A model generated the notes under the pieces. The model ran no database searches. It was not told where the DNA came from and saw nothing but the letters and a program-made list of their open reading frames with translations. This document shows, piece by piece, positions 5,896 through 52,220 of a DNA stretch of 64,000 bases (positions are counted from its first letter, which is position 1; every line of letters starts with the position of its first letter). The translations under genes and the position numbers were made by a program. Source of the stretch: an uncultured Gemmatimonadaceae bacterium (GTDB lineage: Bacteria > Gemmatimonadota > Gemmatimonadetes > Gemmatimonadales > Gemmatimonadaceae); assembly GCA_963716745.1 (NCBI GenBank), contig OY970320.1, positions 2,016,001-2,080,000 of the forward strand, in the 5' to 3' direction.

Positions 5896-7763
5896 ATGTG
5901 CGGCATCTGCGGCGTGCTCACTCCCGACGGCGCCGCGGCATCGCCGGAATTCGCGTTCGCGGTCGCGAAGATGTCGCAACTCATGGCGCGACGCGGACCT
6001 GACTCGCACGGCGCCTGGGTGGACGACCGCGGGCTTCGCGCGCTTCGGATTTCGCCGGCTTGCGGTGATCGATACCTCGAGCGCCGCGCGATCAACCAAT
6101 GCTCAGCGCCGATGGTCGGTCGGCCATCGTCATGAACGGCGAGATCTACAATTTTCGCGAGCTGCGCGCGGAACTCGAATCGCTCGGCCGCCACTTCCGC
6201 ACGAAGTCGGACACGGAGGTGCTGCTCGCCGCCCTCCACCAGTGGGGACACGACGCGCTCGCACGCCTGAACGGCATGTTCGCGTTCGCCTGGTACGACG
6301 CCGAGCATCGCACACTGCTGCTCGCGCGCGATCACGCCGGGATCAAGCCGCTCTCGTACTTCGTGCATCCCGGTGGCGGCGGCATCGCATTCGCATCGCG
6401 CTACGATGCGCTGCTGCATACCCCATGGGGGCGGCCGGGAGGCATCGATCGCGAGACGCTCGCGCTGTACCTCCGTCTGCAGCATCTGCCCGCGCCCTAC
6501 GCGCTGCTCGAGAACACGCACCAGCTCGAGCCCGGCCACTCGCTCACGGTGAGCGCTGACGGCCGGACCGAGAAACGCTGCTGGTGGCAACATGCCGCGC
6601 GACCCGGCGCCCGACCTTCGCGGCGCGGCCGCGATCGATGCGCTCGGCGGCGCGCTCGAGAATGCGGTGCGGCGCAACCGGATCGCCGATGTGCCGCTCG
6701 GCGTGTTCCTCTCGGGCGGAGTCGATTCGCCGTTGATCTCGGCGGTCGCGCGCGAACAGGCGGGACCGGAATTGCAGGCGTTCACGATCGCGAACCCGGG
6801 CTGGCGGCAGGACGAGGGACCGGACGCCGAGCGATATGCGCGCACGTTGGGAGTTCAGCTCGTCAAGCACGATGCGACGGCGAGCGAAGCGCTCGCCGCC
6901 GTGAGCGACGTTCGCGAGGCGCAGTACGAGCCATTCGCGCGATTTCTCGATCCTGCCGACACTGCTCGTGAGCCGTCTCGCACGCGAGCGCGCGACGGTC
7001 GCGCTGAGCGGGGATGGCGGGGATGAGTTGTTCTTCGGCTATGAACGGCCGGTCTCATTGCTGCAGCGAGTGGACGGGATTTTCGGCTTCCCTGGCTCGC
7101 GCGCATCGCGAAGTACGCGATCTCGGCGCGCGGCCACCGGCCGTCGGCCATCGGATGTGATCGTGCACCGGACTGCCGGGGACTACTACTTCAGCGTCAA
7201 TTCCCGCATGAGCGCGGCGACCGTCAGGCAGCATCGCGCCCTCGCTCAGCACGATACCGGACGATTTCGATCTCTATGAGTCGGGGCCATATCGCGATCC
7301 GTTGCAACTCGCCAATTTCTCACGACGCGCGGAGTTCGAGGGGCAGCTGCAGCGCGGGCTGAAGAAGGTGGACATGGCGAGCATGCATCACAGTCTCGAG
7401 GTGCGCGTGCCGATGCTGGATCGCGAGGTGATCGAGGTGAGCCTGCGAATCGATCCGTTCGAGAACCTTCGCGACGGCGCGCGGAAGGCAGTGCTGCGCG
7501 ACCTCCTCGCCCGGCACGTGCCGAGGGAGATCATCCCCGCGGCGAAGCGTGGGTTCGCGGTGCCGCTCGGCGATTGGCTCCGTGGCCCGCTCAAGGATAC
7601 GGCGCAACAGGCGCTATTCGCGCCGGCACTGATGGGCACCGGCCTCTTCGAGAAGAAGCGGATCAATGCGTATTGGAAGCAGCATCTCAGTGGGCAGCAC
7701 GACCACAAGTGGGGCATTTGGACACTGATGACGCTCTCGTGGTGGCTGGAGCGCAACGCGTGA
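5896..7763 (+). CDS. asnB: Asparagine synthase (glutamine-hydrolysing)-like amidotransferase, frameshifted
   Basis: MCGICG Ntn start, RRGPD, NGEIYNF, RDHAGIKPL, LSGGVDS, SGDGGDELF, EVRVPMLD. Confidence 0.9.
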
Positions 7764-36579: not shown

Positions 36580-37651
36580 TCAGTTCTCGCGGTGCGGCGC
36601 GCGCACCATCAATGCCGTCCACTTTCGCGCCAAGCGATACGGCCTGAGCACGTGATACAGGCCCCGCAGTCCGGCGGGCAGGGCGGTCACCTCCAGATCA
36701 TCGATGGTCGGCGTGATCGCCGAGCGCATCGCGAACGCCAGCCGATCCCGCGCTCGCTCACGCATCGCGAACTGGAATCTCGTGCTCTCGACGAAACCGG
36801 GCGCATCGCTCCCGCTCATCATCCGTCGGCGGATCTCTGCGACCAACGCAGGCGGGCACGCGTGAGCCAGCGTCTGCGCGGCCTTCGGCAGCGGGGACTC
36901 GGCGATCTCCGCCGCCAGCGCCAGCGCGAGTCCCGTCATTCGCGCCGTCCCCAAACTCGCGCTCGTCCGCTGCACGAACTCCCAGTCCATCGGCTCCAGC
37001 CTCGCCACTGCCGCGATATCCCCGATCCACCGGAGATGCGGCCATTCGTGTTTCCCACCGTGGATCGCAAGATAGACCAACGTCAACTCATTCGAGAGCG
37101 CCATTACCTCGGCCCCGCCCACCGGCACGCGTTGGGCGTTCTCCCACCAGAGCCCCTCGCCGCACGCTCAGCCCGAACTGCCGCTTGATGATCCCCCAAT
37201 GCAACTCCACGCTCGTGCCCGCCGCGTTCACGAGCGAGTGATGGTACTCGATCTCGCGGAACGCCGCATCCTGCCCCGGCGCGAGCTCGTGCACCCGCGA
37301 ATATCCAGCCGCCGACAGCTCCGCGATCGCGCGATCCACATCGCGCTCGTGCACCAGCAGGTCCACATCCATCTGCGGCCGCAGCGCGAGATCCCCGTAC
37401 GCGTGCGCCGCAAGCACCGCGCCCTTGAGCACGATCGCCGGCATGCCCGCGCGCTCCAAGCGCCGGCTGAGCGAGACGGTCTCGCCAGCGAGCATCAACG
37501 ATTGCATGGCCTGGGTCCTCGCGCGCCGCGCGATGTCCTCGCGCACCGGCGCCGGAACTGAAGAACTCGGCGCGGCCGCCACCCAGCGCGCCACCAGTGG
37601 CATCACGCCGTGCCACTCCGCCAGCTCCACCAGCGCGCTCCACTCACCCAC
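36580..37651 (-). CDS. Uncharacterised nucleotidyltransferase (NTP_transf_5-like), one frameshift near 37160; start may lie slightly upstream
   Basis: HGVMPL, VLKG..LA...Y...ALR...DVDLLV, VELHW, H..KH...LRW..D. Confidence 0.85.
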
Positions 37652-37733: not shown

Positions 37734-39719
37734 CTAGTGCCCGCCGTACTGGTACGCGGTGAAGTCCTTCCACATCTGCTCGATCATCTTCCCTTGCAGC
37801 GTCAGCTTGTACTGCTTGAGCGTCGCCTGGTCGGTGATGGTCACCGTGTACGTCGCCGTCGACCCCACCGCGCGCGGCGCGAAATCGTTCACGCGATACA
37901 CGTAAATGCCCTGGTATGGCATCGCTTTCCCCGCGAGCTTCATCTGCTCGACGTTCAGCATCGCCGGCACCCGCACCTTCTCCACGGGAATGATCTCCAC
38001 GCCGTCGCGGAAGATGCGCATGTTGCCGAAGCTGCCCTCGCTCACGTTCTGCACCTTGTCCGGCTGATAGTACGGGAACTCGGTGCGGTCGGGGAACACG
38101 TTGAACACGATCACGGCCTTGCGGTCGTTCAGGAAATCGTCCCAATCGGTCCAGCCCTGGATCGGGTCGATCTTGGTGAACGTGCCATAGCGCTTGGGAT
38201 CGTCCTGCTTCTTGTCCGACAGCGCGTTCACGGCCTGCTGCTGACGCCACGCCATGAGCTGCGGCGTCATCATGAAGATCTTGAACGGGCCCTGCTCGGC
38301 TTGATACACCTCGATGTTCATGTCCTTGCCGAGCTTCGCCACCGCCGCGATCGGCGCCATCGGGAAGGGCTCCCGCGGCACGATCGGCAGCAGCTCGTCG
38401 CTCACCGGCTTCGCCACGAGCGACGGGATCGAATCGCGCGCCTTGGCCATGAACGGGAGGAGCACGGGCGTCGCGACGCTCGTCTCCACACGCGTACCGC
38501 CCTGGTCGCTCGCGGCCTTGTCGCTGTTCAACCCGAGGACGAATCCGTCCTTGCTCACGAGCGGACCGCCGGTGTTGAATTCGCCGACCGCCACGTCGCT
38601 CGTCACGGTGTTCGCGTCGGCGTTGCTCACGAGCCCCAGCGAGAAGACGCCGAGCTTGTTGAGCGGCGAGCCGAACGCGAGCACGCGGTCGCCGGGGCCG
38701 GGCGGCGCCGAATGCGCGCTGTCCGGGAACTGCAGCACCGCGCACTTCGGGCAGCGCTTGGGATTCACCGCGAGCACGGCGATGTCCTTGTCGCGGTCCT
38801 TCGCGATCACGCGCGCGTACACCTTGGTGACGCTGTCGAACTGGACGCGAATGTCGTCGCTGAACTCCACGAGATGCAGGTTGGTGAGCACGAAGCCGTT
38901 CGAATCGGCGTAGAAGCCGGTGCCGCGGAATTCCGTGCCGTACACCATGAACAAACCCGAACGGTCACGCTCGAAGATCTCCTTCTCGGTAAGCACTCTG
39001 GGCGGCGGCGGCGCGGCGATCCGCACGGTGTCGTGCGTCGCGATCGCGGTGCCGCCCGCGGCCGCGCCGAGCGGATTCACCGCCTCGACGCTCGCGTTCT
39101 TCTGCGTGAGCTCGATCGGCGCCATGTCTCTCGCGATCACGGCATTGAACGCCCACCGATAGCGCATGCCCGCGACCTCGGCCATCGATTCGATGCGGTA
39201 GCCGCCGGGGCGGAGACTGCGCGTGAACTTCCCTTCGAGATCGGTGGAGACGTGCAGCGAGTCGCCGCGCGGAGTGATCAGCAGCAGGTCCAACTGCGGC
39301 AGCGGACGCACCGTGAGATCGGGATTCACGACGGCCGCGCGAATGACCACGGGAACGAAGGTGTCCACCGGCGCGGAAGCGACCGGCACGGGCACGGCAC
39401 CCGGCATGACGCGGTGCGCGGTATCGGCGGCGACCTTCGGATTGTTCGGATTGCAGACCGTCTCGAGTCCGCTGATGAGATCGCTCGTGCCGCCCGCGCG
39501 CTTGAGCACCGTCTCGACGTCCGGCGTCATCACGAAGCTGATGCAGTTCTGCTTCGCCAGCGTCAGCACGCGCGTGCTCGCGACTTTCCGCTTGAGCAGT
39601 CCCACGAGATCATCGAGGGAGTACGCTTTGCCCTGGCCGGCGGCGACGGAAGATCCGGCGAGGAGCAACGCCACCGAGATCATCATGGCGCGGCAGGTCA
39701 TTTTGGGCACAGATCGCAT
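37734..39719 (-). CDS. Secreted protein with a carboxypeptidase-regulatory-like domain and a trypsin-like (S1C) domain, catalytic Ser replaced by Thr
   Basis: Signal peptide, GTGF, LTNLHLV, DIAVL, GEFNTGGPL. Confidence 0.75.
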   Translation of the reverse strand: MRSVPKMTCRAMMISVALLLAGSSVAAGQGKAYSLDDLVGLLKRKVASTRVLTLAKQNCISFVMTPDVETVLKRAGGTSDLISGLETVCNPNNPKVAADTAHRVMPGAVPVPVASAPVDTFVPVVIRAAVVNPDLTVRPLPQLDLLLITPRGDSLHVSTDLEGKFTRSLRPGGYRIESMAEVAGMRYRWAFNAVIARDMAPIELTQKNASVEAVNPLGAAAGGTAIATHDTVRIAAPPPPRVLTEKEIFERDRSGLFMVYGTEFRGTGFYADSNGFVLTNLHLVEFSDDIRVQFDSVTKVYARVIAKDRDKDIAVLAVNPKRCPKCAVLQFPDSAHSAPPGPGDRVLAFGSPLNKLGVFSLGLVSNADANTVTSDVAVGEFNTGGPLVSKDGFVLGLNSDKAASDQGGTRVETSVATPVLLPFMAKARDSIPSLVAKPVSDELLPIVPREPFPMAPIAAVAKLGKDMNIEVYQAEQGPFKIFMMTPQLMAWRQQQAVNALSDKKQDDPKRYGTFTKIDPIQGWTDWDDFLNDRKAVIVFNVFPDRTEFPYYQPDKVQNVSEGSFGNMRIFRDGVEIIPVEKVRVPAMLNVEQMKLAGKAMPYQGIYVYRVNDFAPRAVGSTATYTVTITDQATLKQYKLTLQGKMIEQMWKDFTAYQYGGH

Positions 39720-39915
39720 GGCGGTTGGGCGGGGACGGGGAATTCGAGGGGTTGACGGTCCCCCAATTGTAATGCACATCACACTTTAGCGCGAACTACG
39801 AGATCGGCCATTGGCCATCGACCATAGCTATCGTAACGACGTAATAGCGGGCGGGGAGTCACATGACTTCGCGCGGTTCCGACAGCCGACAGCCGACGAG
39901 CCGAGACCCGCGTAG

Positions 39916-41610
39916 TTACGGGCACTCCGGCGGCGTGGCGCCGCGCGAGAGGGCATCATCGCGCTCGGCTTTGCACGCGTTCGCGTTCGCGGCGGTCGCG
40001 GCGGCGATCTCCTTCTTCAGCTGCTTCAGCGCGGGCGAGTCGGGGTATTTTCGGGCCAACTCCGAGAGCTTGTCGCTCGCGTTACCGTAGTCGACGAGCG
40101 CCATTTCATACTCGCCGTTGTTCTTTCGCGACGTGCCCGCCGCGATCGCATCCCTGATCGGCTGGATCACTTCGGTGAGATCCGTGGTGGACGGTACCGG
40201 AGCGATGCGCGGGCCCTTGGCCTTCGCGATGCTGTCCGCCTTCAGCTGGCTGTCCGCGCGCGCCAGGCTGTCGCGAAGGGCCGCGGCGATCCTCGCCTCG
40301 GAGTCGGGCTTGGCAGCGCTGTCCGCGACCGGTGCGGTGGCGGCGACGGCCGTCTTGGGCGGCTGCTGCTGCGTGTACCACCAGTAGCCGCCGCCGCCGG
40401 CGCCCGCGAGCACGACGAACAGCCCCACGAACAGTCCGGTGCGGCTCTTCTTGAGCCCGGCGCTCTCGGCCAGCTCGCCGGTGTTGCCGCTGCCGACGGT
40501 CGCGGTGGGACGGCGCGCTCCGCCGGTCGGCTGCGTCGCGGTCTCGCCTCCGAATCGTCTCGCTTCGGTGCGCATCGGATTCAACGCACTGTCCGCCGCG
40601 TGCGACGCCGTGATCGCGATCGTGCCCTGCTGCGAGAGTGCCGACTGCGGCATGGACGCGACGGCCTTAACAAGATCGCGGCCGAACTGGTTCACGTGCT
40701 GGTACCGCTCGCCGGGATGGTTCGACAGCGCGCGGTCCATCACCCACTGCATCTCCTCGGGCCACTGCACGTCGGGCGCGATCTCCATGAGCGTGCGCGG
40801 CTTCTCGGTGAGGCGCATGATGAGCGCCTCGCGGCTGGTGACGGCGGGGAAGGGCAGCTGTCCCGTGAACATGTTGAACGTGACGAGGCCGAGCGAATAG
40901 ATGTCGGTGCGCGAATCGAGCTGGTCGCCGCCGAGTTGCTCGGGCGACATGTACTCGGGCGTGCCGATCGCGAGCCCGGTCTTGGTGACCTTCTGCTCGT
41001 CGTTGCTCATGGCTTTCGCGATTCCGAAGTCCACGACCTTCACGACGTCTTCGCCGGCGCGGCCGCGCGCGACCATGATGTTGTCGGGCTTGAGATCGCG
41101 ATGCACGATGCCCATCTCGTGCGCGGCCTCGAGCGCTTCACTCGTCTGCCGCGTGATCTCCGCCGCGCGCACGGCGGGCAGCGCGCCCTGCCGCTCGATG
41201 ATCTTCGTGAGCGGCTCGCCGTCCACGAATTCCATCGCGAGATAGATGAGGCCGTCGGCCGTCTCGCCGAAATCGTAGATCGCGGCGACGTTCGGATGCT
41301 GGATGGAGCTGGCGTTGCTGGCTTCGCGATTGAAGCGCTGGATGGCGTCCTGGTCGTGCACCATGCCCTGGTGCATGACCTTCACCGCCGATTTGCGCTT
41401 CATCTTCACGTGCTCGGCGAGATACACCTGGCCCATGCCGCCTTCGCCGATGCGCTTGAGGATCAGATATCGGTCGGCCACCACGGAGCCCACGAGATCG
41501 CTCCCCGGCGGCGCGCGCAGCGTCGAACCATCACGCGGACAGAAGCGCTGCTCGGCGTCGTAACTATTGCCGCATTGCGGGCAGGTCTTCTGGGCGGGGG
41601 CGGGGGACAT
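39916..41610 (-). CDS. Hanks-type Ser/Thr protein kinase with N-terminal Zn ribbon and a TM helix
   Basis: CPQC..FCPRDG, IGEGGMGQVY, AVK, HRDLKPDN, DFGIAK, GTPEYMSPEQ. Confidence 0.95.
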   Translation of the reverse strand: MSPAPAQKTCPQCGNSYDAEQRFCPRDGSTLRAPPGSDLVGSVVADRYLILKRIGEGGMGQVYLAEHVKMKRKSAVKVMHQGMVHDQDAIQRFNREASNASSIQHPNVAAIYDFGETADGLIYLAMEFVDGEPLTKIIERQGALPAVRAAEITRQTSEALEAAHEMGIVHRDLKPDNIMVARGRAGEDVVKVVDFGIAKAMSNDEQKVTKTGLAIGTPEYMSPEQLGGDQLDSRTDIYSLGLVTFNMFTGQLPFPAVTSREALIMRLTEKPRTLMEIAPDVQWPEEMQWVMDRALSNHPGERYQHVNQFGRDLVKAVASMPQSALSQQGTIAITASHAADSALNPMRTEARRFGGETATQPTGGARRPTATVGSGNTGELAESAGLKKSRTGLFVGLFVVLAGAGGGGYWWYTQQQPPKTAVAATAPVADSAAKPDSEARIAAALRDSLARADSQLKADSIAKAKGPRIAPVPSTTDLTEVIQPIRDAIAAGTSRKNNGEYEMALVDYGNASDKLSELARKYPDSPALKQLKKEIAAATAANANACKAERDDALSRGATPPECP

Positions 41611-41707
41611 GGGCAGATAATTGACGATTCGCGGAGGGTTGCGTCAACAATGTGGTCCAACGGCCAACCACTAACGACAGGCGGTTGGCTGTCGGCTGTC
41701 GCTGACT

Positions 41708-42769
41708 CTAACTCCCTGTGAACACCGGCTGCAGTTTCCCTTTCGCCGCCGCTCTCGCCGCGAAGAATCCGACGAGCATGAAGAGGACCGAAACGGCAAT
41801 GAAGATCGACGGCAGGCCGCTGTATTCGTGCACGAGGAACGCCTGCGTCGGATCGGTGGGATCGTACCAAGCCGTCGTGCTGTCGCCGCGATGATAGCGT
41901 GAGGCGATGTGCTGGGCCCACATGCCGCTGCGGCTCTCGCGCATGACGGTGGTGTTGCTGCTCACGTAGTCGCGCTCGCCCACGTGATATCGATAGGTGA
42001 CGATGGGGCTGTAGGTCACGCCGCCCTTACTGCCGCGATGCGATTCGACGTCCGTGAAGAGCACGACGGCGGGCGCGGACACGTAGTTGCTGAGCTTCCG
42101 GTACTGCTGGTAGTTGAGCCAGCTGCCAAGGGCCGTGAAGCATCCGGCGAAGAGAATGAACGCCGCGATGGGGAAGCGCCGGCCGGAGACGCCCCGCGAC
42201 TGCATCGTTCTCACGGTAGCGGCGATCCCGGGCGGGAGATCGCGCAGCTGGGCGTCGAGCGGGTCGGGCGTTGGTGTCGCGGGCGGCGTCTCGACGATCC
42301 CGAGGAATTGGCGCGCAGCGGCGGCGGCTTGGGCGTGCGACGTACTGCTCGTATACCAGCTCGTGAGAGGGAGCCGGTATCCGTCGCGCAGCACGATCGT
42401 GACGCGGAAGGTGGCTTGCGCCGTGCGTTGCGTGTTGGCGGAGACGCTCTGCTCGGCGACGACATCGGAGACCTTCGAGAGGTCCACCTCATCGCGCGTG
42501 GTGGTGCGAAGCGTGTGCCGCGTGATGACGAGCGTATGGCTGGGCCGGTCGAACGATGCGGTGACACGGGACGGGAGGAGCACGAACGCGAGGCCGATGA
42601 CGCCGAGGATCGGGCCGATGAGCATGGCCATCACGTTGTGCGCGGGATCCCTCACGCCGGCGAAGAGAAAGGCGGCTCCGACCGCGACGAAGATGCCTCC
42701 GATCGCGCGGAGCGAGGCGCCGGAGTCGGCGAGGACGAGTCGGTCGGGAGTGCGGAGTAGGATCTTCAC
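41708..42769 (-). CDS. Membrane protein with a C-terminal DUF3592-like domain
   Basis: Four TM segments; YSPIVTYRY, WYDPTDPTQAFL. Confidence 0.7.
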   Translation of the reverse strand: MKILLRTPDRLVLADSGASLRAIGGIFVAVGAAFLFAGVRDPAHNVMAMLIGPILGVIGLAFVLLPSRVTASFDRPSHTLVITRHTLRTTTRDEVDLSKVSDVVAEQSVSANTQRTAQATFRVTIVLRDGYRLPLTSWYTSSTSHAQAAAAARQFLGIVETPPATPTPDPLDAQLRDLPPGIAATVRTMQSRGVSGRRFPIAAFILFAGCFTALGSWLNYQQYRKLSNYVSAPAVVLFTDVESHRGSKGGVTYSPIVTYRYHVGERDYVSSNTTVMRESRSGMWAQHIASRYHRGDSTTAWYDPTDPTQAFLVHEYSGLPSIFIAVSVLFMLVGFFAARAAAKGKLQPVFTGS

Positions 42770-43520: not shown

Positions 43521-44843
43521 TCAGCATCCCCCACCGTCGCTCCCGATCGTGTACTGCACGCTCGTCCAACGCGAATCGACACCGGCAGCGAAGCCGTCGA
43601 TACCGAACACGGCGGTCGAGGCGACGAATTGATTCTGCGTCGCCTGCATTCCGCCGGGTGGACCGTAGTTGCGCGTGATCACCGCCGTGCCATCGACGCA
43701 GAGCGTCGCCGACGTCGTGCCGATCTTGCGCAGCCGGTACGTATGGAACGCGGTGCCCGTGAGCGCGAACGTCGCGCCCCGATTGGTCCATTTGCCGCTT
43801 CCGTTGTTGTAGGTCGCGAAGGAGACTCTATCGCTCGCGATCCCCACGAACTCCTGTCTGCGGCCGCTGCCCTGTGGCTCGGCAAAGCCGAATACCGCTT
43901 GGATCGTGCCCGCGGAGGCATTGACCACGCGGAGCCTCGCGTCCATGACCGCGGATCCGGTTCCCAGCGAATCGTGTCGTGAGTAATAGAGGCTGGTATT
44001 CGCGGTGCCCGCCTGCAGCCTCAGTTCGGTGCCCGCCGTGAAGGCCGCGGTGCCGAGCGTCGGATCGCCGGTGGACGCGAACGTTCCCCAGCGCGGTTTG
44101 CCGTTGAGATCGGGCAGAGAATCCTGCGTGCCATCGTAGATCCGGAGCCAGGTCGTCTCATGCGGCGCCGGCCACGATGCGCTCACCATGAGCGTGAAGA
44201 AGAAGGCGTGCACCGTGTCGGTGACGCCGGGATTCCAGTTGCTGGTCTTGAAGAGCCATACGATGCGATTCGTCGTATCCTTGCCCGCGGCACCGCCCGT
44301 GTAGGCTGACGGACGATTCGGATAGAAGAAATACTTCTGCCCCGCCGCGGTGAAACTGCCGGTGCCCGACTGATTGCTCACGCTCACGGCGCAGCCGACG
44401 CACGGACTCGGCCGCGAGACGTTCGGTGCGACGGTGAAGAACGCGAACACCCCCGACGTATCCGGCGCCGCCACCTCCGGATAGTTGGAACCGATCGCGA
44501 ACGCCTGGCGATTGCGAAGTTCCACGTGCGTGAACCATGTGCGGCTGCCCGCGGGGCCGACGCCGACCACATTGTGCAAACTGTCCACGACGCCGAGCAC
44601 GTCGATCGTCACGCCCTGCTGGCCATAGATCGCGGGACTGATCTTCGTGTCCGTCAGGCCCGCAATGCTGCCGGAGAGCGGCACGAACGTCGTCGTTATC
44701 GTGTTGCCGCTGATCATGCCGTTGACGAAGCCGAGTACGGGTGTCGACGGCGTCGTTATTGGAGCGGAAGGCGCCGGCTCGCTGCACGCCGCGGCGAGCA
44801 GGACGAGGGCAGCCGTTGGTATCAGTCTTGTGTGAGAAGTCAT
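43521..44843 (-). CDS. Surface lipoprotein of unknown function, beta-rich (possible lectin-like C-terminal domain)
   Basis: Lipobox LAAAC, Thr/Gly/Ser-rich sequence, intact frame. Confidence 0.7.
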   Translation of the reverse strand: MTSHTRLIPTAALVLLAAACSEPAPSAPITTPSTPVLGFVNGMISGNTITTTFVPLSGSIAGLTDTKISPAIYGQQGVTIDVLGVVDSLHNVVGVGPAGSRTWFTHVELRNRQAFAIGSNYPEVAAPDTSGVFAFFTVAPNVSRPSPCVGCAVSVSNQSGTGSFTAAGQKYFFYPNRPSAYTGGAAGKDTTNRIVWLFKTSNWNPGVTDTVHAFFFTLMVSASWPAPHETTWLRIYDGTQDSLPDLNGKPRWGTFASTGDPTLGTAAFTAGTELRLQAGTANTSLYYSRHDSLGTGSAVMDARLRVVNASAGTIQAVFGFAEPQGSGRRQEFVGIASDRVSFATYNNGSGKWTNRGATFALTGTAFHTYRLRKIGTTSATLCVDGTAVITRNYGPPGGMQATQNQFVASTAVFGIDGFAAGVDSRWTSVQYTIGSDGGGC

Positions 44844-44929
44844 ACGAAGATACCTGTGCGAGAAAGTGTGCTGCTCTTCGGTCAATGTATAACGGCCAAA
44901 TGCGCGCCGCATCAGCGACGTGCATCACA

Positions 44930-45844
44930 CTACGGGAACAGGATCGCCGGCTCGCGTTCCTGCGCGGCGGTCCCAGGGAACAGCACTTGGATCGAGTCCG
45001 GCGTCAACACGAGCGCCTTCATCGAACTGTTCGCCGCACCCATGGCCGCCGCGAAGATGCAGTACGACGCGTTGCAGCTCGCGGGGCCGCTCGCGGTGAG
45101 CGAGTCCGGGATCGCGTTCATGGGGTTCGTGCCGGTCGCGTCGATCCGGCGGAGGATCAGCTCCGGAACGGGCGCGATGTAGTAGATCTTCGTGCCATCC
45201 GCCGACCATGTCGGCGAGAACGCGCCGCCGCCTTCGTTCGTGATGCGCGTGGGCGTCCCGCCGCCGCTCGCCACGACGTACACCTGCGATGTTCCGGTTC
45301 CCACGCCCGTGTACGCGATGGTGTGGCCCATCGGATTCCACGCGGGCGCACTCACGGGGCTGTACACCGGGTCGCCGGTCGCGAGCATCTGCGCAGAATC
45401 CATCGTCCCCTGGTCCAGCGCCGGCGCGCGGATCAGCCACACCCTCGGCACGCCCGTGCGCGTGCTCACATAGGCGATGGAATCGCCGCTCGGGCTCAGC
45501 GCCGGCGTGTAGTCGAATGCGCCGCTATGCACGACGCGGTGCGGGGTCGTGATGTCGAGGTCGGCAATGTAGATCTGCGGGTAGCCGTCGCGCTCGCTCG
45601 TGAACACGATGCGCGATGCCGCACTGTTGGGATCGTAATTGTTCGATCCGGCGGTGAGCACGACCACGGAGTCGTTCCGGAATCGCACGAGACTCGTGAA
45701 GCCACCCGTGTCGGCCACATACACGAACGCCGGCAATGTCCCGGGCGGCGGCCCACCGCCACCATCGGTGCCCGTCGAGTTGCTGCAGGCGAGCGCGCCG
45801 ATCGCGAGGGCGGCCGCAAGAATGCGCACGGCGTCAGCTCGCAT
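44930..45844 (-). CDS. TolB-like (PD40 repeat) beta-propeller lipoprotein
   Basis: Lipobox ALAC, IVFTSERDG, PALSPSGDSIAYVS, PAWNPMG, PTWSADG; start overlaps the end of the PqqD gene. Confidence 0.85.
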   Translation of the reverse strand: MRADAVRILAAALAIGALACSNSTGTDGGGGPPPGTLPAFVYVADTGGFTSLVRFRNDSVVVLTAGSNNYDPNSAASRIVFTSERDGYPQIYIADLDITTPHRVVHSGAFDYTPALSPSGDSIAYVSTRTGVPRVWLIRAPALDQGTMDSAQMLATGDPVYSPVSAPAWNPMGHTIAYTGVGTGTSQVYVVASGGGTPTRITNEGGGAFSPTWSADGTKIYYIAPVPELILRRIDATGTNPMNAIPDSLTASGPASCNASYCIFAAAMGAANSSMKALVLTPDSIQVLFPGTAAQEREPAILFP

Positions 45845-46103
45845 CGGCCACCAACAATCCGGCATCGTTGAGCGCCGCGATCAGCGCGCGTGTCTCTTCG
45901 CGCGCCACGGGCTCGGTCACGGTGTACTCCGCCGCGAGTGTCTGCACGATCTCATCCTCCACGCGCCCCTCGAGCAGCAGCGCCCAGATGCGCGTACCGG
46001 TCGCGTTCAGCGAATGGTAACGATTGGTGCGGAGATTCAACAACACCGCACCCTCGGCGAGCGTCGCGGCGAGCGCGTCGGGTGTCGCGCGCCATCGGGT
46101 CAT
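45834..46103 (-). CDS. PqqD-family protein/RiPP recognition element (RRE)
   Basis: 89 aa with GAVLLNL....YHSLNATGTRIW.LL and L...Y.V.......L...GLL pattern; ATGA overlap with the kinase. Confidence 0.9.
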   Translation of the reverse strand: MTRWRATPDALAATLAEGAVLLNLRTNRYHSLNATGTRIWALLLEGRVEDEIVQTLAAEYTVTEPVAREETRALIAALNDAGLLVADAS

Positions 46104-46859
46104 GACAGCGCACCCGCGAGCGTGCCGGCGATCGCGTGCAACTGCCGGGCGGTGTGAGCTGAGACGGAACGCCGGGGCGTCCGTTACGAGCGCCCGCAGC
46201 GTCTCGAGGTGCGCCTCCGAGTGGCCGTCCGGCATCATCACCCAGGTGGATTGTCGTACGAGCTGCAGCAGTGCTTCCGCGGCCGCCATGGGCAGCAGCT
46301 CGTCGCGGTCGCCGCGCTCCAGGAAGACGATCGCCGCGACGCGCGCGCGCTGCACGACGGGAAATCGCATCGGTACACGGTCGCGCTCATCGCGGAATCC
46401 CGGAGGCGGCGCGACGCCGGTGAGTTCGGGGAATTCTGGGGCGAGCGCACGGCTTACGGCGAGCGGTTCGCGCCACGCGTGCGCGACGACTCCCGTCGGT
46501 GTGCGCTCGACGATCACGCCATCGTCGCCCATCAGTCTCCAGCCGGCGCGTACGAGCGCGTAGGCGAGCGTGGACTTTCCCGTTCCGTTCCCGCCGGCGA
46601 GGATCCAGGCGCGGCCCTTCGGATCCGCCACCGCCGCGGCGTGCACGTGGAAGCGGCCGAGGGCGCGCAGGCGCACGATCGCGCCCACGCGTGCGAGGAA
46701 CTGGCGCTCGGGGGTGGCGGTGGTGGCGTAGCGATCGCCGCGTTGCAGGCGGCCACGGCGCACGGTGAGCGTGCCGCCGTCGGGCATCAGCTTGAGCACC
46801 GAGCCGGCTGCGTCGGTGAAAGCATCGATCGGACCGGCGGTCCAGGCGAACCCGGGCAC
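46100..46859 (-). CDS. HPr-kinase-related P-loop kinase (probable frameshift near 46158)
   Basis: HVHAAAV, AGGNGTGKSTLA, GWRLMGDD; GGAG RBS before GTG at 46859. Confidence 0.85.
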
Positions 46860-46879
46860 GGGCTCCGCCTGTTGCGGCG

Positions 46880-47104
46880 TCAGCAGCCGAACTTCTGTCC
46901 GCTTACTCCACAGGTGATCTGCAGCGCGAACGCGACGCCGGCGGGGCCGAAGAAATGCTTCGTCAGCACCGTGAGCGATTCGTGGGTCGCGAGCTGCGGA
47001 GTCTCCCAACGGAGACGCGCCGCGCCCGATGTGTCGGGAGCGGGATCGCCGGAGCCGAGCGGAATGTTCGAACCGTCGAGGGGAGAATTGGCCATCGAGC
47101 GCAT
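46880..47104 (-). CDS. Putative RiPP precursor peptide with a lasso-type leader
   Basis: WETPQLATHESLTVLTK matches (Y/W)xxPxLxxx(G)xxxxxTx spacing; first gene before kinase and RRE. Confidence 0.7.
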   Translation of the reverse strand: MRSMANSPLDGSNIPLGSGDPAPDTSGAARLRWETPQLATHESLTVLTKHFFGPAGVAFALQITCGVSGQKFGC

Positions 47105-47346: not shown

Positions 47347-48777
47347 ATGACGCGTAACAGATGGGTCGCGGTGGGGATCGGAGCGCTCGCCGCGATCGGG
47401 GCGGGGTTCGTTTGGTATGCGACGAGCGCGGGAGTGGGGCTGTTAAGCAATGACTCGTTCCTGTATGCGACGCTGGCGAAGGAACTGCGCGGCGGGCGGG
47501 CGCTGTCGAGCATCGCGGTGCCGCCGGGATTCCCCGCGATGCTGGCGATGGGCGCGGATCCGTTCGCGACCGCGAGGATCCTGAACGTCGTTTCCGTCGC
47601 GGCGTTGGTGGCGCTCACCGGCGGCATCGTGTGGTGGAGCACGCGACGCGCGGCGCCGTCGATGTTCGCGGCGGCGCTCGTGGCCGGCGCCAAGCCGCTG
47701 CTCGCGGTGCACGCGATGATGCTGTCCGAGCCGCTGGCGCTCGTGGTGGGTGCGGCGGGGCTCTGGCTCACGCTCGTCGCGCTCGACCGCGACCGCACTT
47801 CGGTCTGGTGCGCGGCGGCGCTCGCGCTCGGGCTCGCGGCGTTCGTGCGATACGCGGCGGTGGCGTATCCGCTCGCGGCCGTGACGCTGGTCGCGCTCGA
47901 GCGGCGCTGGCGCCGGGCCGCGCTGCTCGCGGCGATCTCGGCGCTCCCGCTCGCGATCTGGCTGGCGCGCAACATGCTCGTGGCCGGCGCTCCGACGGAT
48001 CGCATGTTCGCATACCACGCGATGCCGGCGCGCGTCGCGGGCTGGGGACGCGACGCGGTGAGCGTGTGGTTCGACCCGCTCGGGATCGCATTCGGCGGCC
48101 ACCCCGACCTGCGGTGGACCGCAGTGATCGCCGCGGCGCTGCTGTTCGCGTGGGCGATCGCACGCGGTGGCCGCCTCGCGCGACTGGCGGGCCTGTTCGC
48201 GGCGATGTACGTGCTCTTGCTGGTCGTGGTGATCGAATTCTTCGACGCATCAACGATCTTCGATTCGCGAATGCTGGTGCCAGTGTACGTCGCAGCGGTG
48301 CTCGCGGGATCGTGCGCGTTCGCGGCGCTGCTCGTGGCGCCGCGCTGGGCGCCATGGGCGGCGGCCGCGGCCACGCTATTCGTGATCGCGCACGCGTACG
48401 CGGATGTTCGATTCGCGCAGCGAATCCATCCGCAAGGCTGGGGCGCGACGATCGCCGCCTGGCGCGAGTCGCGTCTGGTGGGCGCCGTGAATGCGCTGCC
48501 GCCCGGCACGGAAGTCTGGACGAACGCGCTCTTGCAGCTGCCGTGGGTGAGTGCAGAGCCGGTGCACGCACTCCCGCGCCCCCGCACGCGCATTGGTGGC
48601 GTGCCCTGGGCCGGCTACGATTCCGCGCTCGCGGCCATACCCAGTGGCGCGTACGTCGCACAATTCGGCGATTCTGCGACGTACCAGGGAGCCGCGGTGC
48701 GGGATCTCGTGCGCACGCGCGGGTTGGAAGTTGTTGCCGAAGCGCCGGAGGGCGCGCTCTACAGGGTGAAACGTTAG
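47347..48777 (+). CDS. Polytopic membrane glycosyltransferase (GT-C, ArnT/PMT-like)
   Basis: DSFLY, PPGFP, LSEPL, VRY motifs; many TM helices; TTGACC-17-CAGGAT promoter-like site upstream. Confidence 0.7.
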   Translation: MTRNRWVAVGIGALAAIGAGFVWYATSAGVGLLSNDSFLYATLAKELRGGRALSSIAVPPGFPAMLAMGADPFATARILNVVSVAALVALTGGIVWWSTRRAAPSMFAAALVAGAKPLLAVHAMMLSEPLALVVGAAGLWLTLVALDRDRTSVWCAAALALGLAAFVRYAAVAYPLAAVTLVALERRWRRAALLAAISALPLAIWLARNMLVAGAPTDRMFAYHAMPARVAGWGRDAVSVWFDPLGIAFGGHPDLRWTAVIAAALLFAWAIARGGRLARLAGLFAAMYVLLLVVVIEFFDASTIFDSRMLVPVYVAAVLAGSCAFAALLVAPRWAPWAAAAATLFVIAHAYADVRFAQRIHPQGWGATIAAWRESRLVGAVNALPPGTEVWTNALLQLPWVSAEPVHALPRPRTRIGGVPWAGYDSALAAIPSGAYVAQFGDSATYQGAAVRDLVRTRGLEVVAEAPEGALYRVKR

Positions 48778-48874: not shown

Positions 48875-50371
48875 ATGCGTCACACACTGATCATCTCTGG
48901 CCTCGCTTCGTGCGTGGCCGCTATTGCCGGTTGCAAGTCCAACGATACGGGCTCGACGGGTCCCACGGGCCCGAGCGGATATGCGGCCAACATCACGAAA
49001 GTGAGCGGTGACGATCAGACGGGCACGTTCCTATCGCCCGTTCCAGTGCCGCTCGTCGTCGAGGTGACCGACTCAGCGGGCAAACCCGTGACCGACGCCA
49101 GCGTCGCGTGGGCGGTCAACCTCCTCGATGCCTCGCAGCTCCTGCAGGTATCGACCACCGATGGCAGCGGCCAGACTCAACTCTCGCCCGTTCTCGGGGG
49201 GCGGCCGGGCGCCTTCTCCGTGGTGGCCGCGATCAACAGCAAGGCCGTCACCTTCACGGGGACCTCGAACGTGGCCTTAGGCGCGGGTCTCAAGAACTTC
49301 ACGACCAATCTCTTCGCCAAGTGCGCCCTCGACACGCAGGGCAACGCGCTCTGCTGGGGCAACGGTCTGTTCGGCCAACTCGGACCCACGACGACCGGCC
49401 CCGTCACCGGGCCGGTGCCGATTCCTGGTGGCCACGCGTTCACGCAGATCAGCGGCAACGGGGGCTTGGACTGCGGACTCACGGCCGGCGGCGCAATGTA
49501 CTGCTGGGGCAACGCCATGTATCCGCAGATCGGAAGCGGAGCGCCGGGCACCGGAACCTTCACGACGCCGGTCGCGGCCGGCAATGGCAAGATCTTCAGT
49601 CAGATCGCGGTCGGCTACGCGGTCGCGTGCGGCATCTCGTCGGGCGTGACGTATTGCTGGGGCTTCGGCCACCAGGGCGCGCTGGGCACGGGAGACACGG
49701 CCACACGCTTCGTGCCCACCGCGGTGCAGGTCCCGTCGGGAGTCGCGTTCACCTCGCTTGCGGCAGCCAGCGGCGGATTCACCTGCGGGCTCACATCCGC
49801 AGGCGCGGCGTATTGCTGGGGTGAGAACGACGTTGGAGAACTTGGCACGGGCAGCAGCTCGCCGAGTATCTCGCTCGTGCCCCTCCAAGTGACCGGCGGT
49901 CACACATTCAGCACGCTCGTCGTGAGTCTCTCGGCGGCATGCGGATTGACCTCGGGCGGCGCCGTGTACTGCTGGGGACATGGCGCCAATGGCAACGGCA
50001 CGACGGCCGACGAATATTCTCCCACGGCAATTTCGCAGAGCGGCCTGACCTTCACGCAGCTCTCCGCGACCGGCGGTCTGGGTGCCGTCTGCGCCTTGAC
50101 GTCCGCGGGCGCGGCGTACTGCTGGGGCAGCAACATATACGGCGATTTGGGAAGCGGGTCGTTCGCGACCAGCGGTACGACGCCTGTTCCGGTGACCGGC
50201 GGCCACGTCTTCAGCGCGGTCGTGCCCGGTCCGTTGAGCACCTGCGGATATTCGACGGGCCAGGTGATGTATTGCTGGGGCGCGAACCAATCGAGAGAGC
50301 TCGGACTCGATCCCGGGGCCGACACGATGTACGCGGTGCCGCAGGCGGTGCCGGGGTTGGGCAAGCCGTAG
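48875..50371 (+). CDS. Lipoprotein with an Ig-like domain and RCC1/BLIP-II repeats
   Basis: Lipobox IAGC, SGDDQTG Ig motif, repeated CGLT..GAAYCWG.N..G.LG. Confidence 0.9.
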   Translation: MRHTLIISGLASCVAAIAGCKSNDTGSTGPTGPSGYAANITKVSGDDQTGTFLSPVPVPLVVEVTDSAGKPVTDASVAWAVNLLDASQLLQVSTTDGSGQTQLSPVLGGRPGAFSVVAAINSKAVTFTGTSNVALGAGLKNFTTNLFAKCALDTQGNALCWGNGLFGQLGPTTTGPVTGPVPIPGGHAFTQISGNGGLDCGLTAGGAMYCWGNAMYPQIGSGAPGTGTFTTPVAAGNGKIFSQIAVGYAVACGISSGVTYCWGFGHQGALGTGDTATRFVPTAVQVPSGVAFTSLAAASGGFTCGLTSAGAAYCWGENDVGELGTGSSSPSISLVPLQVTGGHTFSTLVVSLSAACGLTSGGAVYCWGHGANGNGTTADEYSPTAISQSGLTFTQLSATGGLGAVCALTSAGAAYCWGSNIYGDLGSGSFATSGTTPVPVTGGHVFSAVVPGPLSTCGYSTGQVMYCWGANQSRELGLDPGADTMYAVPQAVPGLGKP

Positions 50372-50612: not shown

Positions 50613-52220
50613 CTACGGAGAAGTGAAGGCCACCAGCCCGGAATAGCTCACCCCATAGAGCAGGCCGCCCTTCGACGGGTCGTTCACGATCACCGGGTTC
50701 CACACCGTATTCGGATACGCGAGCACCAAGTGCGAGAGCTGGCGGCCGGTGATGAGATCGAGCACATGGATCCCATCGGAGTTCGATGTGGCGATCAGCG
50801 TGGCGCTCCCGAGCGCGGCGGCGAGCGTGGTGGTGGGCCCGCCGATCGAACCGATGTACGTGCTCAGCCCGTTGATCGTACCGGAGCGCCAGAGGAGCGC
50901 ACCCGTCGCCGCGCTGTGCGACTCGACGCCCGTGGAGGTCGCGATGATCACCGCGCGATTCGCGATGACCGGTGCCTGCTGCCCCGGGCTGGAAACGGTC
51001 CATGACCACACGACATGCAGGTCCGACTGCGCGCGCGCGACGAGTGTGTTGTTGTTCTCGATGAGGTACACGTTCGCGGCATCGGCGCTGATCTTGCTCG
51101 TCGGCTTCGTGCCGACGAACGCGAGCCTCGTGCCCACGGCCTTCGAGAGCGCGTAGACGCCGGGGAGCGGCGGATTGGTCACGGTGGCCGCGGCCCAGTA
51201 GTCGCCGGCGACGAACAGCGTGGTGCCGCTGAGCGCGATGCCGGCGATGTCATCGTATCCGTCGCCGCGCGCGGTGCCATAGCTGTTCGCGGTCCACGTT
51301 TTCGCCCCGGCGGTGGTCATGCGGGCTACGAAGGGGCCGGGTCCGTCCACGTGCCAGCGGTGGTCCACGTACAGCCCGCTCGTATCGGCGAGCGTCTCTC
51401 CCCAGCGGTCCACGCCGCTGAACCAGAGCCGCGAGCCCGAGCTGGTGTCCAGGAAGCCGATCCCGTCATCCTGGAACACGAAGCGGGTGCCCCACACCGA
51501 GCCCCACTGGCCGATGTTGGTGTCGTAGCCGCCGTCGAAGGTCCACGCGCGATGGCCGGCGGTGGTGACGCGGTCCACGTCGGTCGCGCCGGTGTAGCCG
51601 CTGCCGAGCACCGACTGCGCGCTCCACTGGAGGAAGATCGCGTCGGCGGTGGGCAGCGCGTTGAGCACGTATTGGAACGGGCGCGTGCTGGACGGCGCCG
51701 CCGGCGTGTAGCTCCACGCTTTCGTGAGCGGACCTTTGATGCTGGCCTGCGACGCGCCAGCGCGGGTGCCATCGTGCCCGTAGGTGACCCAATCGTCGCG
51801 CACGCCCGGCGCGGCGGCGGTCGCGTTGAAGGTGAGCTTCGTCGACAAGTCGGTCATCGTCGCGAGCACCGAGCTCGTACCGGCCAGGCCGCCGAACGTG
51901 AGCGTCGCTTGCGCTCTCCCATTACGGTCGGTGACCGACGTGGGCGCGTCGAGCGCGCCCTGTCCGGCGACGGTCCAGGTGATGGTGAGGCCCTCGATGG
52001 GCACCGTGTCGGCATCCGTGACTCTCACGACGAACGGGCGCGGGAGCGCCGTGTTGATCACCCCGAACTGCGTGTCGCCGCTGACGATCGTGAACGACGC
52101 CGGCGGGCCGTGTTTGGGCTGAGTGCTTTCATTGCACGCCAACGCGAAGAGCGAAAGGCCAGCGAGCACCGTCAGCACCGCTGCGGGCTTGCGCGAGGTT
52201 CTCGGGATCATCGGGACCAT
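50613..52220 (-). CDS. Lipoprotein with an Ig-like (Big_1) domain and a PQQ-like beta-propeller
   Basis: Lipobox ALAC, VSGDTQ Ig motif, DWVTYGHDGTRAG, repeated G..LW blades. Confidence 0.8.
   Translation of the reverse strand: MVPMIPRTSRKPAAVLTVLAGLSLFALACNESTQPKHGPPASFTIVSGDTQFGVINTALPRPFVVRVTDADTVPIEGLTITWTVAGQGALDAPTSVTDRNGRAQATLTFGGLAGTSSVLATMTDLSTKLTFNATAAAPGVRDDWVTYGHDGTRAGASQASIKGPLTKAWSYTPAAPSSTRPFQYVLNALPTADAIFLQWSAQSVLGSGYTGATDVDRVTTAGHRAWTFDGGYDTNIGQWGSVWGTRFVFQDDGIGFLDTSSGSRLWFSGVDRWGETLADTSGLYVDHRWHVDGPGPFVARMTTAGAKTWTANSYGTARGDGYDDIAGIALSGTTLFVAGDYWAAATVTNPPLPGVYALSKAVGTRLAFVGTKPTSKISADAANVYLIENNNTLVARAQSDLHVVWSWTVSSPGQQAPVIANRAVIIATSTGVESHSAATGALLWRSGTINGLSTYIGSIGGPTTTLAAALGSATLIATSNSDGIHVLDLITGRQLSHLVLAYPNTVWNPVIVNDPSKGGLLYGVSYSGLVAFTSP

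Follow-up and report, generated by a model that had tools for sequence, protein, structure and literature searches.

The closest described system to the one considered here is that of the linear polyphosphorylated peptides (LPP), encoded by lppA-K-B-S-D-N in Paenibacillus alginolyticus and published in May 2026 (Popov et al., Nat Commun 2026, PMC13381572). In the portions of that paper available to us, to which everything said of LPP below is limited, an HprK-like kinase is reported to phosphorylate a precursor bound to a RiPP recognition element (RRE; RiPP, ribosomally synthesised and post-translationally modified peptide), the cluster lies within a capsule locus, and the precursor leader follows the consensus YxxPxVLxHQxIxFETxxS, with polyphosphorylation at core Ser 3, at position +18. 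The authors called the system restricted to Bacillota (PMC13381572). Because of this publication, the idea of a peptide modified by an RRE and an HprK-like kinase in a cluster that lacks a cyclase is no longer unprecedented. Here, we describe an operon of five genes at 47104-43521 on the minus strand of a 64,000-nucleotide (nt) stretch of DNA (the window, G000:C1:2016001-2080000) from an uncultured member of the Gemmatimonadaceae, the assembly of which is a single 3.29-Mb contig that is 89.8% complete. We consider it fairly probable that this operon encodes a ribosomal peptide-modification module put together from lasso-peptide parts without the cyclase, and that it is the Gemmatimonadaceae counterpart of the LPP systems of Bacillota.

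An earlier note, made from the letters of the window alone, had proposed five co-oriented minus-strand genes in this region, and the list of open reading frames (ORFs) agrees with that reading in order and orientation. The operon begins with a gene for a precursor-like peptide of 74 amino acids (aa; 46880-47104). At 20 nt past the stop codon of the peptide, as had been noted, is the GTG start codon (46859, preceded by AGGCGGAG) of an HPr-kinase-like P-loop protein (46100-46859). This is followed by a discrete PqqD-family RRE of 89 aa and lasso B1 type (45834-46103, ATG start at 46103), the end of which is overlapped by the gene of a 311-aa TolB-like PD40 beta-propeller lipoprotein without a peptidase domain (44930-45865; PD40 1.4e-21). 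The overlap, also correctly anticipated, is 32 nt, or 11 nt if the propeller starts at the in-frame ATG at 45844. The last gene is a 463-aa ORF (43521-44912) with a likely start at 44843, which gives MTSHTRLIPTAALVLLAAAC and a lipoprotein signal ending in LLAAAC, in agreement with its earlier assignment as a second lipoprotein.

Judged by its conservation, the 74-aa ORF is a genuine gene, as the earlier note had supposed. The peptide contains WETPQLATHESLTVLTK. When the DNA for residues W33 to C74 was compared between the window genome (G000) and its congener G003 (15.5 synonymous and 9.5 non-synonymous differences), the ratio of non-synonymous to synonymous change (dN/dS) was 0.13 in the peptide frame, whereas in the other two frames of the same DNA the ratio (pN/pS) was 1.85 and 2.88; the peptide is under purifying selection. 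Within the genus, peptide identity was 100% for G002, 99% for G004, and 75% for G003 over residues 27-74, the N terminus of the G003 peptide being unalignable with that of the window peptide, and two distant copies located beside kinase orthologues (G031 and G018) have the same leader. A profile of four sequences retrieved 43 proteins, all of them unnamed, from a set of 5.8 billion, and a profile made from the 43-sequence alignment matched 62 representative clusters at E≤1e-3 in a set of 1.84 billion proteins. Residues R30, W33, P36, H41, S43, and T48 are invariant over the 43 sequences, and L38, L44, T45, and P54 are nearly so. Scans with Pfam and NCBIfam gave no family for the peptide, and limited literature searches yielded no description of it. 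In the phylum, the peptide was found in 15 of 401 sampled genomes (14 of the 395 of good quality), all from two families of one order: the family of the window accounts for 11 of its 93 genomes and a sister family for 3 of 166, with 0 of 141 for the ten remaining families. The recurrence of a small W..P.L...T ORF beside orthologous kinase and RRE genes, on which the earlier note had made its reading depend, was observed in other genera and in metagenome contigs.

The N terminus of the peptide is variable and has no hydrophobic signal. The leader that follows reads RRxWxxPxLxxHxSLTxLT in the window and [RK][RK]xW-x-x-P-x-L-x-x-H-x-S-L-T-x-[LM]-T in the family, which, counting from W as 0, puts P, L, H, and T at +3, +5, +8, and +15, respectively. 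The core of the window peptide is HFFGPAGVAFALQITCGVSGQKFGC, and it contains no D or E anywhere; across the family, Asp or Glu was present at core position 7-9 in 15 of 84 distinct cores. Three core types were recognised: the hydrophobic HFFGP...LQI.C(x)nC type, to which the window peptide belongs, the ...[IV]PCSQGFCP type, and the ...[IV]PGS.GFFP type. Between the types the middle of the core is hypervariable and the C-terminal loop is conserved. At least two Cys residues are present in 59 of the 84 cores and 25 are Cys-free, with no core having a single Cys. In 69 of the 84, the Cys/Gly position has a Ser or Thr next to it, compared to a mean of 17 and a maximum of 28 in shuffled sequences, this motif having been picked post hoc. 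The Cys-free ...PGS.GFFP cores adjoin radical S-adenosylmethionine (rSAM) enzymes in G206 and G304, and most cores of the rSAM-bearing loci are without Cys. In a protein atlas, the nearest clusters were unnamed Acidobacteriota peptides (0.87-0.89), with the Subterisin lasso-precursor family at 0.77, values that we take as leads only.

The PqqD-family protein matches PF05402 over the cut-off (3.9e-17) and the NCBIfam model lasso_PqqD_Strm at 58.6 bits, under the cut-off of 70. Its closest relatives of solved structure are the lasso RREs TbiB1 (5.6e-13, residues 11-84), TfuB1 (1.4e-6), and PbaB1 (0.022). As in the leader complexes of TbiB1 (PDB 5v1u and 5v1v) and TfuB1 (6jx3), a PqqD domain is accompanied here by a peptide with aromatic-x-x-Pro-x-Leu knobs; the partner enzymes differ, and the window pair is known from sequence and prediction. 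The complex of the RRE (alignment of 10 rows) with peptide residues 24-74 (42 rows) was predicted with a score of 0.48, compared to 0.00 for the best of three controls; the runs shared at least 71% of contacts and the partner pLDDT (predicted local distance difference test) was at least 53. Of 157 solved complexes, 116 reached the pass mark, as did 2 of 215 mismatched pairs, counts that hold only roughly for this prediction because it was made with alignments of our own. Scores that passed at 0.60 or below were obtained for 18 of the 157 solved complexes and for both of the passing mismatches. In the modelling called for by the earlier note the score thus exceeded the mark, but the pass may reflect likeness rather than binding because similar RRE-leader complexes have already been solved. 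The prediction hints that the RRE may bind the peptide.

The P-loop protein has, according to structure prediction, an HPr kinase/PEPCK-like P-loop fold. For the orthologue in G004, with which it shares 92% identity over residues 1-234, a model built with 48 homologues had a pLDDT of 93.7, and its best fold matches were PEPCK and HprK/P (E 2.6e-6 to 4e-6, 20-23% identity), with the Walker A and DD motifs aligned with those of HPrK/P. At the sequence level, Hpr_kinase_C matched under its cut-off (1.1e-4), and the weak matches to Hpr_kinase_C, HprK_rel_A/B, and ScmC centred on the P-loop GGNGTGKST and a GDD motif. Residues G89, G92, G94, K95, S96, T97, D112, and D113 are invariant in the 48 homologues. 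The 249 close homologues are unnamed and carry the Pfam accession PF27840. The predicted fold and the invariant Walker A and DD residues agree with the earlier identification of an HPr-like kinase.

The junction of the kinase with the RRE had been described as an ATGA overlap. An ATGA is present at 46103-46100, but in the window as read the kinase frame has no stop there and passes into PqqD, giving an ORF of 341 aa. A DNA alignment with the three congeners G002, G003, and G004 showed that the window has one extra base at 46158/46159, and this base is also missing from both soil-metagenome contigs that cover the place, X1 (depth 2.6/2.6), which otherwise has 1 mismatch in 206 nt relative to the window, and X3 (6.12/6.12), which comes from a relative of about 93% identity. 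Without the extra base, the kinase terminates as ...FRL.HT..QLHAIAGTLAGALS at the TGA of the ATGA (46102-46100), and the more distant G031 orthologue has the same C terminus. Other window genes are also split by frameshifts, an Asn synthase gene into three pieces (6592-7751) and an NTP_transf_5 nucleotidyltransferase gene into two (36580-37651), the G004 orthologues of which are intact; the split genes and the 89.8% completeness of the single contig point to indel errors in the assembly. Because the congeners and metagenome contigs lack the base and other window genes are frameshifted, the extra base is probably an assembly indel, and a genuine kinase-PqqD fusion was rejected as the likely state. 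The ATGA coupling of the two genes is likely the true state.

The partners of the peptide were mapped by tblastn with the window proteins, because a gene caller based on GC content at third codon positions (GC3) was unreliable on lower-GC loci, in 19 genome loci with peptide matches and in 14 further genome and metagenome loci, not all of which are independent (L112 repeats the values of G003). The kinase was found in 15 of the 19 loci; the four loci without it have the weakest peptide matches, and two of these four have an rSAM enzyme beside the peptide. The other partners in the 19 loci were PqqD (10), the propeller (12), the second lipoprotein (8), an rSAM/SPASM enzyme (6), and a B2 leader peptidase (1, in G018, which at 59.2 bits exceeds the NCBIfam lasso B2 cut-off of 33). 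The propeller-less loci L086 and L038 end short of the expected place of the propeller. Among the 14 further loci, the kinase was present in 13, the contig of the 14th ending 33 nt past the peptide, and PqqD was found in 8 and the propeller in 7, the latter being all the contigs that extend to its place; the lectin lipoprotein was found in 3 loci and an rSAM enzyme in 1. The second lipoprotein is downstream of the peptide in the window and upstream in other genera, and an architecture of rSAM, HPr-kinase-like protein, and PqqD is present in the sister loci of G031, G206, and G304. A search with the Pfam family NTP_transf_5 (PF14907) found this nucleotidyltransferase in the cluster in G031 and G085 and, apart from G000, G002, and G004, on other contigs in the remaining genomes, whereas tblastn with the two split pieces from the window gave no match in the related loci. 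In light of these partners, the term "orphan" that had been applied to the operon is too strong, since the module includes both lipoproteins as conserved components, and genes for rSAM, B2, or nucleotidyltransferase proteins are found in sister loci. In G031, NTP_transf_5 and a PD40 propeller occupy one open frame of 608 codons (L082 2398-4221) with a lipoprotein signal (…ALSGC) in mid-frame, which may be due to read-through, a sequencing error, or a real fusion.

All orthologues of the propeller and of the second lipoprotein start with a signal peptide ending in Cys. The second lipoprotein has 20 homologues, all unnamed. Its model (pLDDT of 77 overall and 88-98 in the C-terminal half) shows a beta domain at the N terminus and, at the C terminus, a jelly roll of concanavalin-A-like/GH16-like type. 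The C-terminal half matches concanavalin-A-like lectin and GH16 jelly rolls with a target-normalised TM score of about 0.6. The GH16 match is under the Pfam cut-off and the ExDxxE-type acid motif of GH16 is not in the sequence; we therefore read the jelly roll as a putative lectin-like binding domain and rejected the glycosidase alternative. Two paralogues, at G000:C1:1598184-1599476 (+) and 944324-945487 (-), are 39-40% identical, and so the lectin-fold lipoprotein belongs to a small lineage-specific family.

The operon resembles the LPP clusters in the [Y/W]xxPx[V/L] leader, in the discrete lasso-derived RRE, in the HprK-like kinase that adjoins the precursor (here in 15 of the 19 loci and 13 of the 14 further ones), and in lacking a macrolactam cyclase. 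The His at +8 and the Thr at +15 of the window leader coincide with the LPP consensus, polysaccharide genes adjoin in both cases, and a nucleotidyltransferase of the same kind is nearby. It differs from the available description of LPP in its host, Gemmatimonadaceae rather than Bacillota, in the leader aromatic residue, which is Trp here and Tyr in LPP, and in its RRE, which is nearer to TbiB1 than to Bacillota RREs and has no match to LppB. The window operon has two conserved lipoproteins, with rSAM or B2 in sister clusters. The nucleotidyltransferase, which is part of the cluster in LPP, is 9.2 kb away in G000, G002, and G004 and within the cluster in G031 and G085. The SpI/SipW-type peptidase of LPP was not found in G000, the best match to TIGR02228, at 1.79 Mb, scoring 19.3 bits against a cut-off of 51.85, and no MsbA-like ABC exporter was found in the operon; general Pfam scans of the ORFs at 36-64 kb, made without a dedicated search, gave no ABC transporter, the sole ABC_tran match being the P-loop of the kinase. 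Finally, the window peptide has Phe at +18, the LPP acceptor position, and Ser/Thr is not conserved there in the family.

A comparison with paeninodin-type phosphorylated lasso peptides draws on the available description in PMC13381572 and on the listing of PMC8498205. Those clusters and this one alike pair an HprK-like kinase with a B1 RRE for a leader of WxxPxL type, and both have a partner of the NTP_transf_5 type and polysaccharide loci in the vicinity. In the paeninodin type there are in addition a B2 protein and a cyclase, and the product is a threaded macrolactam, whereas the present cluster lacks both a cyclase and an acidic acceptor residue.

More distant likenesses are seen with the HprK-related kinases A and B that occur with PqqD_rel_X, with SynChlorMet (ScmC), and with GeoRSP, in which an HPr-kinase-like P-loop protein is combined with a PqqD-family protein and often with an rSAM/SPASM enzyme. 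The scores of the window proteins against models of these systems were 45.4 against a cut-off of 200 (TIGR04352), 29 against 200 (TIGR04355), 27.5 against 125, and 19.5 against 35 (TIGR04353), all far under the cut-offs, and therefore the locus is not a member of the HprK_rel_A/B, ScmC, or PqqD_rel_X equivalogs. We know of no assigned substrate for the HprK-related A/B, SynChlorMet, or GeoRSP systems, and a literature search on HprK-related kinases, SynChlorMet, and GeoRSP found nothing relevant.

A model of how the module may work, its biochemical steps drawn by analogy, is as follows. The discrete B1-type RRE would hold the 74-aa precursor by W33-x-x-P36-x-L38 and present it to the HPr-kinase-like P-loop enzyme, which would phosphorylate a conserved Ser or Thr, with the invariant S43 and T48 and the Ser beside the first Cys of the C-terminal loop as candidates. 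A protease from another locus, for which the lone B2-type cysteine protease of the genome is the obvious candidate, would then remove the leader by cleavage at T48 or beside it, leaving a product of about 25 residues with two Cys, probably paired. This product would be located at the cell envelope, where the propeller and lectin-fold lipoproteins may bind, carry, or neutralise it in the context of an exopolysaccharide (EPS) locus.

Several observations weigh against this interpretation. The acceptor site of LPP is represented by Phe in the window and by no conserved Ser/Thr in the family, and the alternative motif of a Ser next to Cys was defined post hoc. Neither a leader peptidase nor an exporter is encoded in the operon, and the search of the genome for an SpI-type peptidase, as given above, gave a TIGR02228 score of 19.3 bits (cut-off 51.85). 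Both lipoproteins are exported, and the peptide has no signal peptide. The kinase, at 45.4 against 200, is far under the cut-offs of every named HprK-related NCBIfam model, and LppB (9x8z) was not among the PDB matches of the RRE at E≤1. Furthermore, tblastn gave no PqqD match in five kinase-bearing loci (L079, L080, L087, L088, and L089), so that the module may be able to do without the RRE or have it provided in trans. As for the candidate protease, all 18 of the 18 peptide-bearing genomes have B2-like genes, but so do 78 of the 101 genomes of the family, a tally that includes the unpublished-flagged genomes G012, G430, and G431 (G012 is also included in some other genome tallies); none of the other claims depends on these genomes. 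Because B2 is this common in the family, its co-occurrence with the peptide says little, and we discarded it as evidence. The lone lasso-B2-like gene of the window genome (G000:C1:2965629-2966096, +) immediately follows a GGDEF gene and has no gene for an RRE, a kinase, or a peptide as a neighbour, and single B2-like copies are also present in congeners, including G005, in which the kinase query was unmatched and the peptide query gave one match, at chance level.

It might be argued that the GC-rich DNA upstream of the kinase contains the 74-aa ORF by chance, given that the genome is 65-70% GC with many long spurious ORFs and that the peptide matches no Pfam or NCBIfam family. This is hardly credible, being contradicted by the dN/dS of 0.13 compared to pN/pS values above 1.8 in the other two frames, by the homologue sets of 43 and 62 with their six invariant residues, and by a position adjacent to the kinase that is conserved across genera. 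A true lasso cluster whose cyclase and peptidase genes are at other places in the genome, the Asn-synthase homologues of the EPS locus and the lone B2 gene being examples, would have in its favour the aromatic-x-x-Pro-x-Leu leader with Thr at +15 that is seen over the 43 sequences, an RRE that is of the PqqD family (PF05402 3.9e-17) and closest to lasso B1 proteins (TbiB1 5.6e-13), three Asn_synthase genes within 46 kb, and one B2 gene in the genome. However, there is no B2 leader peptidase in the cluster, the single PF13471 match of the genome being about 900 kb away (G000 2965767-2966072), and among the peptide loci an in-cluster B2 was found only in G018. No macrolactam cyclase was recognised in the window, in which the Asn synthases scored 39.4 and 51.9 bits on the cyclase model NF033535 (cut-off 525) and 168-174 bits on the XrtA/PEP-CTERM amidotransferase model, their best scores being for XrtA/PEP-CTERM amidotransferase or AsnB; nor was a cyclase seen in the 33 related loci with the queries used, which did not include an Asn-synthase query. 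The 25 residues after T48-K49 have no Asp or Glu to serve as a macrolactam acceptor, and the core HFFGPAGVAFALQITCGVSGQKFGC has none at positions 7-9 or elsewhere. Because there is neither a core acidic residue nor a lasso cyclase, the product is not a lasso peptide, and a lasso cluster dispersed over the genome is highly improbable. The earlier statement that this is not a standard lasso cluster is borne out, and the absence of a cyclase and a peptidase was correctly read for the operon, but the genome has the one distant B2-like gene, and three amidotransferases of AsnB/XrtA type are in the EPS locus. A genome survey, in the part available to us, reports antiSMASH-type lasso calls in 29 marine metagenome-assembled genomes.

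Two other explanations accept the peptide as a gene product and differ in what the operon does with it. The pathway could be a RiPP pathway in which the HPr-kinase-like protein serves as a scaffold that binds ATP or as an ATP-dependent enzyme of another kind, a situation that may apply to the HprK-like proteins of ScmC-type rSAM cassettes, and in which the chemistry is Cys pairing or cross-linking in the C-terminal loop, carried out by rSAM enzymes in sister clusters. The matches of the protein to ScmC and HprK_rel_A/B are about as weak as that to HPrK, the peptide is paired with an rSAM/SPASM enzyme in six loci, the parity of Cys is strict (0 of 84 cores with a single Cys) and the C-terminal loop conserved, and the LPP acceptor position is not conserved. 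Yet the P-loop GxGKS/T and DD residues are invariant in 48 homologues, as expected of an active phosphotransferase, the cluster of the window itself has no rSAM gene, and, in the available portions of PMC13381572, the only characterised HprK-like enzymes of RRE-dependent peptide clusters are kinases. We regard a non-kinase role as unlikely on balance. Still less likely, in our estimation, is that the operon is no natural-product pathway but encodes a phospho-switched small protein, a regulatory or structural partner of an envelope or EPS system, for which PqqD acts as a chaperone and the lipoproteins are the working parts. For a RiPP, the core shows an unusual degree of conservation, the HFFGPAGVAFALQI.CGVSG.KFGC type being near-identical across many contigs, the operon is without a peptidase or exporter, and the peptide is tightly linked to two lipoproteins and the EPS locus, all of which would fit such a protein. 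The geometry of the leader, however, is exactly that read by lasso and LPP RREs, including the Thr at the cleavage position, one sister locus has a B2 over the lasso cut-off (59.2 against 33), and a hypervariable middle of the core between a retained leader and C-terminal loop is the pattern of a precursor peptide.

A more specific proposal for the chemistry, which we put forward as a long shot, is that the C-terminal loop, and not the region near the leader, is its site: the HprK-like kinase would phosphorylate the Ser beside the first Cys, the phosphate would be eliminated, and the resulting dehydro residue would be trapped by a flanking Cys, so that lasso-derived parts would form a ring of lanthionine type without LanB, LanM, or LanKC. 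In the Cys-free ...PGS.GFFP subfamily the ring would be made by the rSAM enzyme, and the lipoproteins would hold the ringed peptide on the exopolysaccharide layer. The lack of single-Cys cores, the Ser or Thr beside the Cys/Gly position (the post hoc motif), and the mostly Cys-free cores of the rSAM-bearing loci would be compatible with such a scheme.

The surroundings of the operon agree with the link to EPS genes that had been suggested for it, with an EPS locus beside it and, on the same strand at 9.2 kb downstream, the NTP_transf_5 gene (36580-37651, -; 4.3e-37 and 1.3e-13 for its two frames in the assembly), which may encode an accessory enzyme. This gene is intact and syntenic in G004 and G002. 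The EPS locus occupies 1-35 kb of the window on the plus strand and contains several GT4/GT2 glycosyltransferase genes, Wzy, Wzz/BY-kinase, Poly_export, an aminotransferase, methyltransferases, a carbamoyltransferase, and three Asn-synthase-like genes of the XrtA/PEP-CTERM amidotransferase or AsnB type. Between the nucleotidyltransferase and the operon (37734-42769, -) are three genes with synteny in G002 and G004, which encode a serine protease of HtrA/trypsin-like type, the N-terminal region of which is long, a Ser/Thr protein kinase that begins with a zinc ribbon, and a membrane protein with DUF3592. Downstream of the operon is a pilin gene that is convergent with it. Upstream of the peptide gene there is a gap of 242 nt and then a divergent gene (47347-48777, +) for a membrane protein with weak PMT_2/GT-C-like similarity (PMT_2 8.6e-4, under the cut-off); this gene is in the same position in G004, G002, and contig L103, and it adjoins the peptide only in close relatives. 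Farther upstream are genes for two predicted surface proteins, an RCC1-repeat protein with a Big_1 domain (48875-50371, +) and a BamB-like PQQ_2 propeller with a Big_1 domain (50613-52220, -).

A scan for sigma-70-like promoters on the minus strand upstream of the peptide gave no site, such a scan being uninformative for the phylum Gemmatimonadota. The sequencing runs that carry the stretch were all of soil or rhizosphere DNA, as contigs with shares of at most 0.39, and there was no RNA run among them.

A paralogous cassette was observed at G000:C1:2103663-2109118, about 24 kb past the window, consisting of genes for an RCC1-repeat protein, an rSAM/SPASM enzyme, a TolB-like lipoprotein, PqqD, and an HprK-like kinase. 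No peptide matching the A2 profile was found in it, and a 'P.L..H.SL' match before its rSAM gene was rejected as an out-of-frame reading of the rSAM start. A third PqqD-family match (G000:C1:147394-147585, -) is beside a PQQ-dependent dehydrogenase-like gene and a c-type cytochrome gene, and it may be part of PQQ metabolism and not of a peptide cassette.

The earlier note had also suggested that EPS-linked kinase/PqqD cassettes have small-peptide substrates, and this seems to hold more widely in the lineage. When 24 other kinase/PqqD loci of relatives were scanned for small ORFs with an aromatic-xxPx-hydrophobic motif and a Thr near +15, we judged that 6 of the 24 carry convincing precursor-like ORFs with other leader types, the other matches having the appearance of chance. 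Locus L040 of G055 (119-1067) has three tandem FxxPxLxEEASLxxITLVSGG peptides, YxxPxLxxxGxFxxLTQ peptides are present in G019 (L051 1889-2367) and G020 (L048 1122-1499), and further precursor-like small ORFs were found in G038 (L042 911-1111) and G030 (L058 1076-1306). The cores in these kinase/PqqD(/B2) cassettes are Gly-rich or rich in aromatic residues. Because related cassettes carry other leader types, the peptide system described here may be one of several such families.

Cassettes of an HPr-kinase-like protein and PqqD near polysaccharide loci have long been annotated without a substrate, and the precursor family provides a concrete candidate for one. The first experimental account of such a system, as far as the available portions of PMC13381572 go, covers Bacillota only and was reached by means of a signal-peptidase marker that the system described here lacks; the same logic would now be seen in a Gram-negative soil phylum with few cultured members. 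The precursor family is well defined, in that it has 62 representative clusters, a leader with six invariant residues, and cores of three types, and its partner set differs in the two lipoproteins and, in some loci, rSAM, B2, or a nucleotidyltransferase. The leader profile therefore offers a marker-independent route to mining such clusters, and it may give a handle on how peptides of this kind are related to the cell envelope and to exopolysaccharide.

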